A stretch of DNA of 64,000 bases, from assembly GCF_009909145.1 (NCBI RefSeq), contig NZ_JAAAPJ010000005.1:336470-400469 (forward strand), read 5' to 3'. Each line of letters opens with the position of its first letter. Position 1 is the stretch's first letter. Shown piece after piece: positions 13,520 to 13,538 of the stretch. The translations under genes were made by a program, and so were the position numbers. Source of the stretch: Corallococcus silvisoli. GTDB taxonomy: Bacteria; Myxococcota; Myxococcia; Myxococcales; Myxococcaceae. The notes under the pieces are model-generated. The model searched no databases, had not been told where the DNA came from, and was given only the letters and a program-made list of their open reading frames with translations.

Positions 13520-13538
13520 AAGCAGCGGCTGTGCCAAC
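13520..13538 (-). promoter_or_regulatory. Candidate sigma-54 (-24/-12) promoter for the 13463->6686 operon
   Basis: Minus-strand sequence TGGCAC-AGCCG-CTGC (plus strand gcagcggctgtgcca) gives a perfect -24 TGGCAC, 5-nt spacer and a -12 GC. It lies about 60 nt upstream of the ATG at 13463 in a divergent intergenic region. Confidence 0.45.

Follow-up and report, generated by a model that had tools for sequence, protein, structure and literature searches.

Promoters of the sigma-54 type follow the consensus TGGCACG-N4-TTGC(T/A), and those of Myxococcus lose their activity when GG is changed to TT or GC to TT (PMC7910581). In the same bacterial family as the organism studied here, the Nla28 promoters of M. 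xanthus combine a -24/-12 element with tandem half-sites for an enhancer-binding protein (EBP) upstream of it; the half-site reads CT(C/G)CG(C/G)AG, its copies are sometimes unusually placed in Nla28-dependent promoters, and mutagenesis of GG and GC is an established test for these promoters (PMC7910581). Nla28 itself is a phosphorylatable, NtrC-like protein that belongs to a developmental cascade and has many targets (PMC7910581). Other described activators offer further points of comparison. Those of the DctD/NtrC1 type are built of receiver, AAA+ and helix-turn-helix (HTH) domains and use tandem upstream sites at a -24/-12 promoter; cut down to the AAA+ and HTH parts, they are constitutively active. 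PspF is a dedicated EBP encoded beside a single envelope operon (pspA) and is not controlled by phosphorylation: it is without a regulatory domain at the N-terminus, and PspA, a product of the operon, inhibits it. RtcR/rtcBA is a compact, horizontally spread cassette with one sigma-54 promoter, one operon and an adjacent EBP, the sensor domain of which is not a receiver.

We analysed a 64-kb stretch of DNA from Corallococcus silvisoli (hereafter the window) in which a -24/-12 element precedes a six-gene operon on the minus strand, running from 13463 to 6686 with junctions of 2-15 nt or overlapping. Our reading is that this element is very probably a functional RpoN promoter for the genes g1-g6, and that the EBP encoded in the same cassette acts on it at two palindromes, which we call upstream activator sites (UAS). 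The features on which this reading draws are the following:

13622-13637, unstranded: UAS1, the distal palindrome CCGAAGCCTGCTTCGC, centred at about -119 from the predicted start
13581-13596, unstranded: UAS2, the proximal palindrome CCGAAGCGCGCTTCGC, centred at about -78 from the predicted start
13531-13536, minus strand: -24 element TGGCAC, with its GG at 13535-13534
13522-13525, minus strand: -12 element CTGC, with its GC at 13523-13522 and TT next
13509-13511, minus strand: predicted transcription start at about 13510, placed from the -12 C at 13522
13471-13475, minus strand: Shine-Dalgarno sequence GAGGA of g1, conserved in the myxobacterial alignment
12834-13463, minus strand: g1, 209 aa, with an acidic N-terminus (MHDVDRT...), ELLEV..ELDQFLG, a glycine zipper and the C-terminal GRWVRKGNKIILYGV
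11484-12827, minus strand: g2, 447 aa, HExxH protein (HEVGH) with no Pfam family
9610-11466, minus strand: g3, about 618 aa, with no Pfam family and conserved in 76 loci
8509-9594, minus strand: g4, 361 aa, a divergent BioF/Kbl-like PLP-dependent enzyme (Pfam Aminotran_1_2, 1.1e-9)
7530-8516, minus strand: g5, 328 aa, the occupant of a variable slot, with an acidic N-terminus and no Pfam family
6686-7522, minus strand: g6, an Amidohydro_2 enzyme that starts MIIDCHCH (Pfam, 4.6e-23)
5319-6671, plus strand: the EBP, 450 aa, with pseudo-receiver, AAA+ and putative C-terminal HTH domains, Walker A GESGTGKE and GAFTGA

Relative to DctD/NtrC1, the EBP of this locus lacks the conserved receiver phosphorylation residues and gives no Response_reg match, while the cassette comes without a histidine kinase and has a UAS sequence of its own, CGAAR-N4-YTTCG. 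This palindrome differs from the Nla28 half-site, and the EBP appears to serve a single cassette promoter where Nla28 has many targets. Such a dedicated activator recalls PspF, from which it differs in having an N-terminal domain, and the psp genes are unrelated to g1-g6. The likeness to RtcR/rtcBA lies in the layout of the cassette and in a sensor domain other than a true receiver, the contents of the two operons being unrelated. Both names were considered for the EBP itself and rejected. As a PspF it carries an N-terminal domain too many, and the PspF models cover only its AAA+ and HTH parts, with scores far below their cut-offs; as an RtcR it is without a CARF domain, and the NCBIfam match is confined to residues 162-393 (264 bits against a cut-off of 650). 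The RtcR and PspF models of PADLOC align to the protein from residue ~162 onward only.

Inspection of the sequence of 13200-13900 showed that the minus strand reads GGGT-TGGCAC-AGCCG-CTGC-TTATG. GG and GC stand in the canonical -24/-12 register, with a T at -11, and the full element is TGGCACAGCCGCTGC (13536 to 13522, minus strand). An earlier note on this DNA had described TGGCAC-N5-CTGC on the minus strand, with proper spacing and some 60 nt before the first ATG. Reading the sequence confirmed its coordinates and register, and we measured 59 nt from the C of GC (13522) to the ATG at 13463. From the predicted start, the 5' UTR would be about 47 nt long. The site agrees with TGGCACG-N4-TTGCW at 10 of the 12 specified positions, and its two departures from consensus are an A for G after TGGCAC and CTGC for TTGC. 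It is also the best match, on either strand of the whole window, to a sigma-54 position weight matrix (PWM) (15.5 bits), an approximate matrix that we drew up from the published consensus.

The same note had called such a match rare by chance, a claim that holds locally but not for the window as a whole. For a region of about 300 nt read on one strand, roughly 0.001 exact matches are expected. Over both strands of the 64-kb window, however, 0.43 chance matches are expected, and at least one exact match appeared in 34 of 100 shuffles. Allowing one mismatch to the consensus gave no enrichment either (two matches seen in the window against 4.9 expected). Because it is not significant window-wide, the rarity of the motif is by itself insufficient. 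No sigma-70-like site was found in the intergenic region or in 4800-13800 with an E. coli-type consensus, which is insensitive at 70% GC, and the search of 4800-13800 for terminator-like sites, equally empty, used a scan that is insensitive in GC-rich DNA; an additional sigma-70-type promoter may exist in this GC-rich DNA. No RpoN box was found within the window; Myxococcaceae carry rpoN, and in M. xanthus the gene is reported to be essential. The second-best PWM match in the window, TGGGAAGTGCCTTGCT (4824-4839, minus strand, 14.2 bits), sits just within the 5' end of an ORF (3995-4867) for a lipoprotein-like product that has no Pfam family and a C-terminus of Cys-rich repeats, and is probably a chance match.

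Stronger discrimination came from related loci. We fetched and scanned 80 genomic loci with g2 homologues, drawn from about ten or more phylum-level groups. The promoter test was made on the 72 loci that extend 1 kb or more ahead of g2, with the 2 kb upstream scored; these loci share ancestry and do not count as independent in phylogenetic terms. In 78% of the 72 loci the best sense-strand score for sigma-54 reached at least 14 bits, compared to 8% on the antisense strand of those regions and 3.1% of 1034 control 2-kb blocks. Median best scores were 15.6 bits for the loci and 8.7 bits for the controls, and the element was found in the same position in 56-69 of the 72 loci, against 3-11% of controls. 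The distance from the matches to g2 is 700-900 nt in one class of loci and 1250-1650 nt in the other, which corresponds to one or two g1-like genes, and in most loci the motif lies roughly 35-150 nt before the Shine-Dalgarno sequence and ATG of the first g1-like gene.

TGGCA is near-invariant in 65 unique orthologous promoters and the TGC of the -12 element is invariant across loci; the choice of the best match per locus inflates this apparent invariance of the core positions, but leaves the enrichment over controls unaffected. Myxococcota loci have C in place of the first T of TTGC, giving the CTGC variant. An alignment of six myxobacterial intergenic regions, 49% identical overall, keeps exactly UAS1, UAS2, TGGCA, TGC, the Shine-Dalgarno sequence and the ATG. 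Phylogenetic footprinting thus supports the proposal of a sigma-54 promoter for the operon, since a putative -24/-12 element recurs at the same place together with conserved UAS.

The palindromes, which the earlier note does not mention, came to light when short inverted repeats were listed for the 300 nt preceding each -24 element. The dominant one is GCGAA-N6-TTCGC with the core CGAAR-N4-YTTCG, and over its 16 bp it can be written S-CGAAR-N4-YTTCG-S. In 66 of 67 loci the 400 nt ahead of the -24 element contain one or two copies with at most one mismatch, and the density of the palindrome is 52-fold higher near promoters (4.03 per kb) than elsewhere in the loci (0.077 per kb). Forty-two loci have two copies, all of them 41-43 bp apart and 32 of them at exactly 42 bp. 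In the window the spacing between UAS1 and UAS2 is 41 bp, and both have a perfect CGAAG-N4-CTTCG core, which no other site in the 64 kb shares. Most of the loci that did not fit at first pass have the UAS pair and then a weaker -24/-12 element; as for individual cases, L016 runs off its contig and L055 has a UAS pair without a clear -24/-12 element. Two features are less telling: the distances from UAS to promoter show a weak peak of helical phasing near 9.9 bp (R about 0.5), and the sites are rather near the promoter, which counts against the model.

Autoregulation is not indicated, since no palindrome was found within 400 nt upstream of the EBP gene in any of 36 loci or in the window; nor were UAS found elsewhere in the cassette, its opposite end included. 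Internal second promoters were considered and set aside, as palindromes lying at a distance rarely have a promoter-like motif beside them: only 2 to 4 of 107 had a nearby motif of at least 13 bits. The one clear two-module case is a Chloracidobacterium locus (L048), with two complete modules of UAS pair and -24/-12 element at ~1914 and ~738 nt upstream of g2, one ahead of each g1 copy, where other loci have a single module. The intergenic region of the window matched no Rfam family; a CRISPR-DR20 match in it, sub-threshold at E=0.48, was taken as chance.

The earlier note had also placed an EBP nearby, convergent with the 3' end of the operon, and this is what we find at 5319-6671 on the plus strand: the gene converges on g6 with 14 nt between their stop codons, and it encodes the sole EBP in the window. 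The start of the protein is set at 5319 by a 450-aa NCBI entry that is 100% identical to it and carries the annotation of a sigma-54 dependent regulator. Its AAA+ domain matches Sigma54_activat (PF00158, 2.2e-53), and both GESGTGKE and GAFTGA are nearly invariant in 47 orthologues. At the C-terminus, HTH_8 scores 19.3 bits against a Pfam cut-off of 22. The putative HTH segment ...LQRAA..LGVTDRALQ.RR... is nearly invariant in the same 47 orthologues, which parallels the near-invariance of the UAS. Forty-six loci include g6 and a further 1.5 kb or more of sequence, and in every one of them an orthologue of the EBP follows g6, at a median distance of ~60 nt; the two genes are convergent in 42 loci and co-directional in 4 (L007, L040, L050 and L058). 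This synteny, in 46 of 46 loci, supports the idea that the operon would be served by the EBP beside it.

No Pfam family, Response_reg included, matched the first ~120 residues of the EBP. Used alone as a homologue query, this N-terminal domain gave a single match, for which reason the full-length orthologues were used instead. In an AlphaFold model built from the 47 orthologues (pLDDT 89.7), the domain is predicted to adopt a receiver (CheY-like) fold. It does not conserve the acidic pocket, phospho-Asp, Thr/Ser and Lys of receivers: there is no DD after beta1, the position after beta3 is variable (D/N/G/A/S/R/E) and Trp stands in place of Lys, while in the orthologue alignment the only invariant residues of the domain are W, G and R. 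No histidine kinase domain was detected among the window proteins encoded in 3995-16040 or among the sampled variable-slot proteins of other loci; such a kinase may be encoded elsewhere. We have named the domain a pseudo-receiver because it combines a receiver fold without phosphorylation residues with the lack of a kinase in the cassette. Judging from these residues, the EBP is probably activated by something other than a histidine kinase that phosphorylates it, more likely by a ligand or a protein partner.

In the mechanism that we propose, sigma-54 RNA polymerase would bind TGGCAC-N5-CTGC and form a closed complex. Dimers of the EBP would bind the two 16-bp palindromes, some 78 and 119 nt upstream of a start near 13510, and assemble into an AAA+ ring that could touch sigma-54 through its GAFTGA loops, with ATP hydrolysis by the EBP then opening the promoter. 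The model is built on sequence elements, conservation, synteny and domain folds from a predicted structure, and from these we infer binding, the transcription start, the dependence on RpoN and the EBP, and the nature of the signal.

Other explanations can be given for the same data. The element could be a real sigma-54 promoter that answers to a different EBP, in which case the palindromes might bind, for instance, a repressor, and the adjacent EBP would serve some other target. Myxobacteria encode dozens of EBPs (fifty-three in M. xanthus; PMC3162934), and the binding of our EBP to the UAS is a prediction made with an HTH_8 score (19.3 bits) below the Pfam cut-off of 22. We nevertheless regard this explanation as unlikely: the EBP is syntenic in 46 of 46 cassettes across phyla, also in organisms with few EBPs, the cassette has no other conserved DNA-binding protein, the UAS are confined to this promoter, and the residues of the HTH and the UAS are both near-invariant.

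That the motif arose by chance, the operon being run from a sigma-70-type or ECF-type promoter, is more improbable still. The numbers from the window taken alone would allow it, with 0.43 exact matches expected and one-mismatch matches not enriched, and so would the insensitivity of the sigma-70 scan in GC-rich DNA. A chance motif, however, would hardly recur at the same position in 56-69 of 72 loci against 3-11% of controls, or be accompanied by a conserved UAS pair and a syntenic EBP, and the intergenic region shows no sigma-70-like site. We give equally little credence to the idea that the conserved blocks mark the edge of a mobile element, for example as a terminal repeat or a recombination site, or form a structured RNA leader. 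The cassette does occur in differing genomic contexts, and palindromes could serve as recombinase sites; yet the blocks stand directly ahead of the first gene and conform to the sigma-54 consensus in orientation and spacing as well as in sequence, no repeat matching them lies at the other end of the cassette, no integrase or transposase is conserved with it, and Rfam gave no match. An RpoN promoter activated from the two palindromes by the cassette EBP thus stays our preferred reading.

The genes under this promoter are for the most part without annotation. g1 matches no Pfam family, but g1-like genes are present in 74 loci, with 1-4 paralogues per cassette and a common layout: MHDIDRT, an acidic stretch and ELAxELLEVxxExELDQFLG, then a glycine zipper, GLELEGLSxEDxEFE and a C-terminal SGRWxRRGxxIxLxG. 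For g2 there are more than 5,700 homologous clusters, and identity stays at 60-70% between homologues from about ten or more phylum-level groups. The predicted model of g2 (pLDDT 84) matches only generic helical bundles among solved structures, and comparison of g2 and g3 with PDB sequences gave nothing meaningful. For g3 we took the ATG at 11466, with a GGAGGA Shine-Dalgarno sequence, as the start; the listed ORF opens at a TTG at 11481. For g1-g3 we obtained no match to a family, a defence model or a solved structure, the PADLOC defence models gave none for g1-g6, and no obvious N-terminal signal peptide was seen by eye in g1-g6. g4 matches NCBIfam bioF at 1.8e-16, far below the family cut-off, and g6 is 55-81% identical to its homologue in 51 loci. 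The start of g5 overlaps the stop of g4 (ATGAATGA), and g5 was found only in the closest Myxococcaceae loci, L001 and L002; it has a g1-like acidic N-terminus, a Pro/Gly-rich linker and a C-terminal GIY-YIG match that is sub-threshold (E 0.04-0.08). A firm GIY-YIG assignment of g5 was dropped, the match lying below the cut-off.

By tblastn with the window proteins, the order of the cassette is g1 (1-3 copies), g2, g3, g4, variable slot, g6 and EBP. Homologues of g2 occur in Myxococcota, Nitrospira, Chloroflexi, Methylomirabilis, anammox Planctomycetes, Acidobacteria, Verrucomicrobia, Entotheonella and alpha-, beta- and gamma-Proteobacteria, and the genomic context of the cassette differs between genomes. 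The DUF4139 gene that neighbours the regulatory region upstream in the window is absent from all 80 loci, that of a congeneric Corallococcus included, which assigns the regulatory region to the cassette rather than to its neighbour. Sequence comparison across these loci indicates that the predicted promoter, the UAS pair, the operon and the EBP gene are one conserved cassette in many phyla. Neither an integrase or transposase nor a DNA-binding protein other than the EBP is conserved in it, and in the window its base composition is indistinct from that of the flanks.

The variable slot gives an indication of what the cassette may act on. PG_binding_1 is present in 7 of 10 slot proteins sampled from other cassettes, fused to Amidase_2, to VanY plus 3D, to Peptidase_M74 or to a weak Glucosaminidase match, and the same slot elsewhere holds a Peptidase_M23 protein without PG_binding_1 or an M20 peptidase. 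Some of these peptidoglycan-hydrolase fusions contain a g1-like segment. With peptidoglycan hydrolases as slot cargo, the cassette would be directed at the cell wall or envelope and its cargo would be polymorphic; such predicted cargo points to the cell wall or envelope. Examples of slot proteins between g4 and g6 are found at L013:14678-17059, L013:17751-19274, L009:14042-15625 and L009:16788-18731, and also at L011:14572-16641, L055:10216-12396 and L008:14655-15680.

A broader interpretation, which we hold tentatively and at slightly less than even chances, is that of a self-contained, horizontally spread sigma-54 module (tandem UAS, -24/-12 element and pseudo-receiver EBP) that would switch an undescribed, cell-wall-directed system. 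The core of this system would consist of the glycine-zipper g1, the HExxH protein, a 620-aa protein of unknown fold, the BioF-like PLP enzyme and the amidohydrolase, and its variable slot would hold effectors that are polymorphic, for the most part peptidoglycan hydrolases and in the window a possible GIY-YIG nuclease. If true, the system could be a bacteriolysin-like weapon or a device for regulated autolysis, similar to holin/endolysin, with a trigger other than phosphorylation. A full-text literature search, of incomplete coverage, turned up no account of either the cassette or its regulator. As far as we found, then, the cassette is undescribed and is the more novel part, the mechanism of its promoter being already known.

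Ordinary as it is, that mechanism gives a precise handle on a large unannotated family (the more than 5,700 clusters of g2), in the form of a dedicated activator, a truncated version of which should turn the cassette on, together with a defined promoter and an operator consensus of 16 bp. The function of the cassette becomes directly testable in this way, also in heterologous rpoN+ hosts such as E. coli or Pseudomonas. It would moreover be a case in which all the parts of a sigma-54 regulatory unit pass between phyla together, and a receiver domain without phosphorylation chemistry raises the question of what the EBP senses.

Two further observations concern the surroundings of the cassette. 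On the far side of the regulatory region, and divergent from it, two adjacent DUF4139/DUF4140 (MuiA-like) paralogues are encoded on the plus strand (13767-16040 and 15983-17599); they are absent from all 80 loci and were therefore placed outside the cassette. Homologues of g2 that are 51-62% identical are also carried on four rhizobial/Paraburkholderia megaplasmids or chromids (NZ_CP032690.1, NZ_CP032685.1, NZ_CP118611.1 and NC_010625.1).
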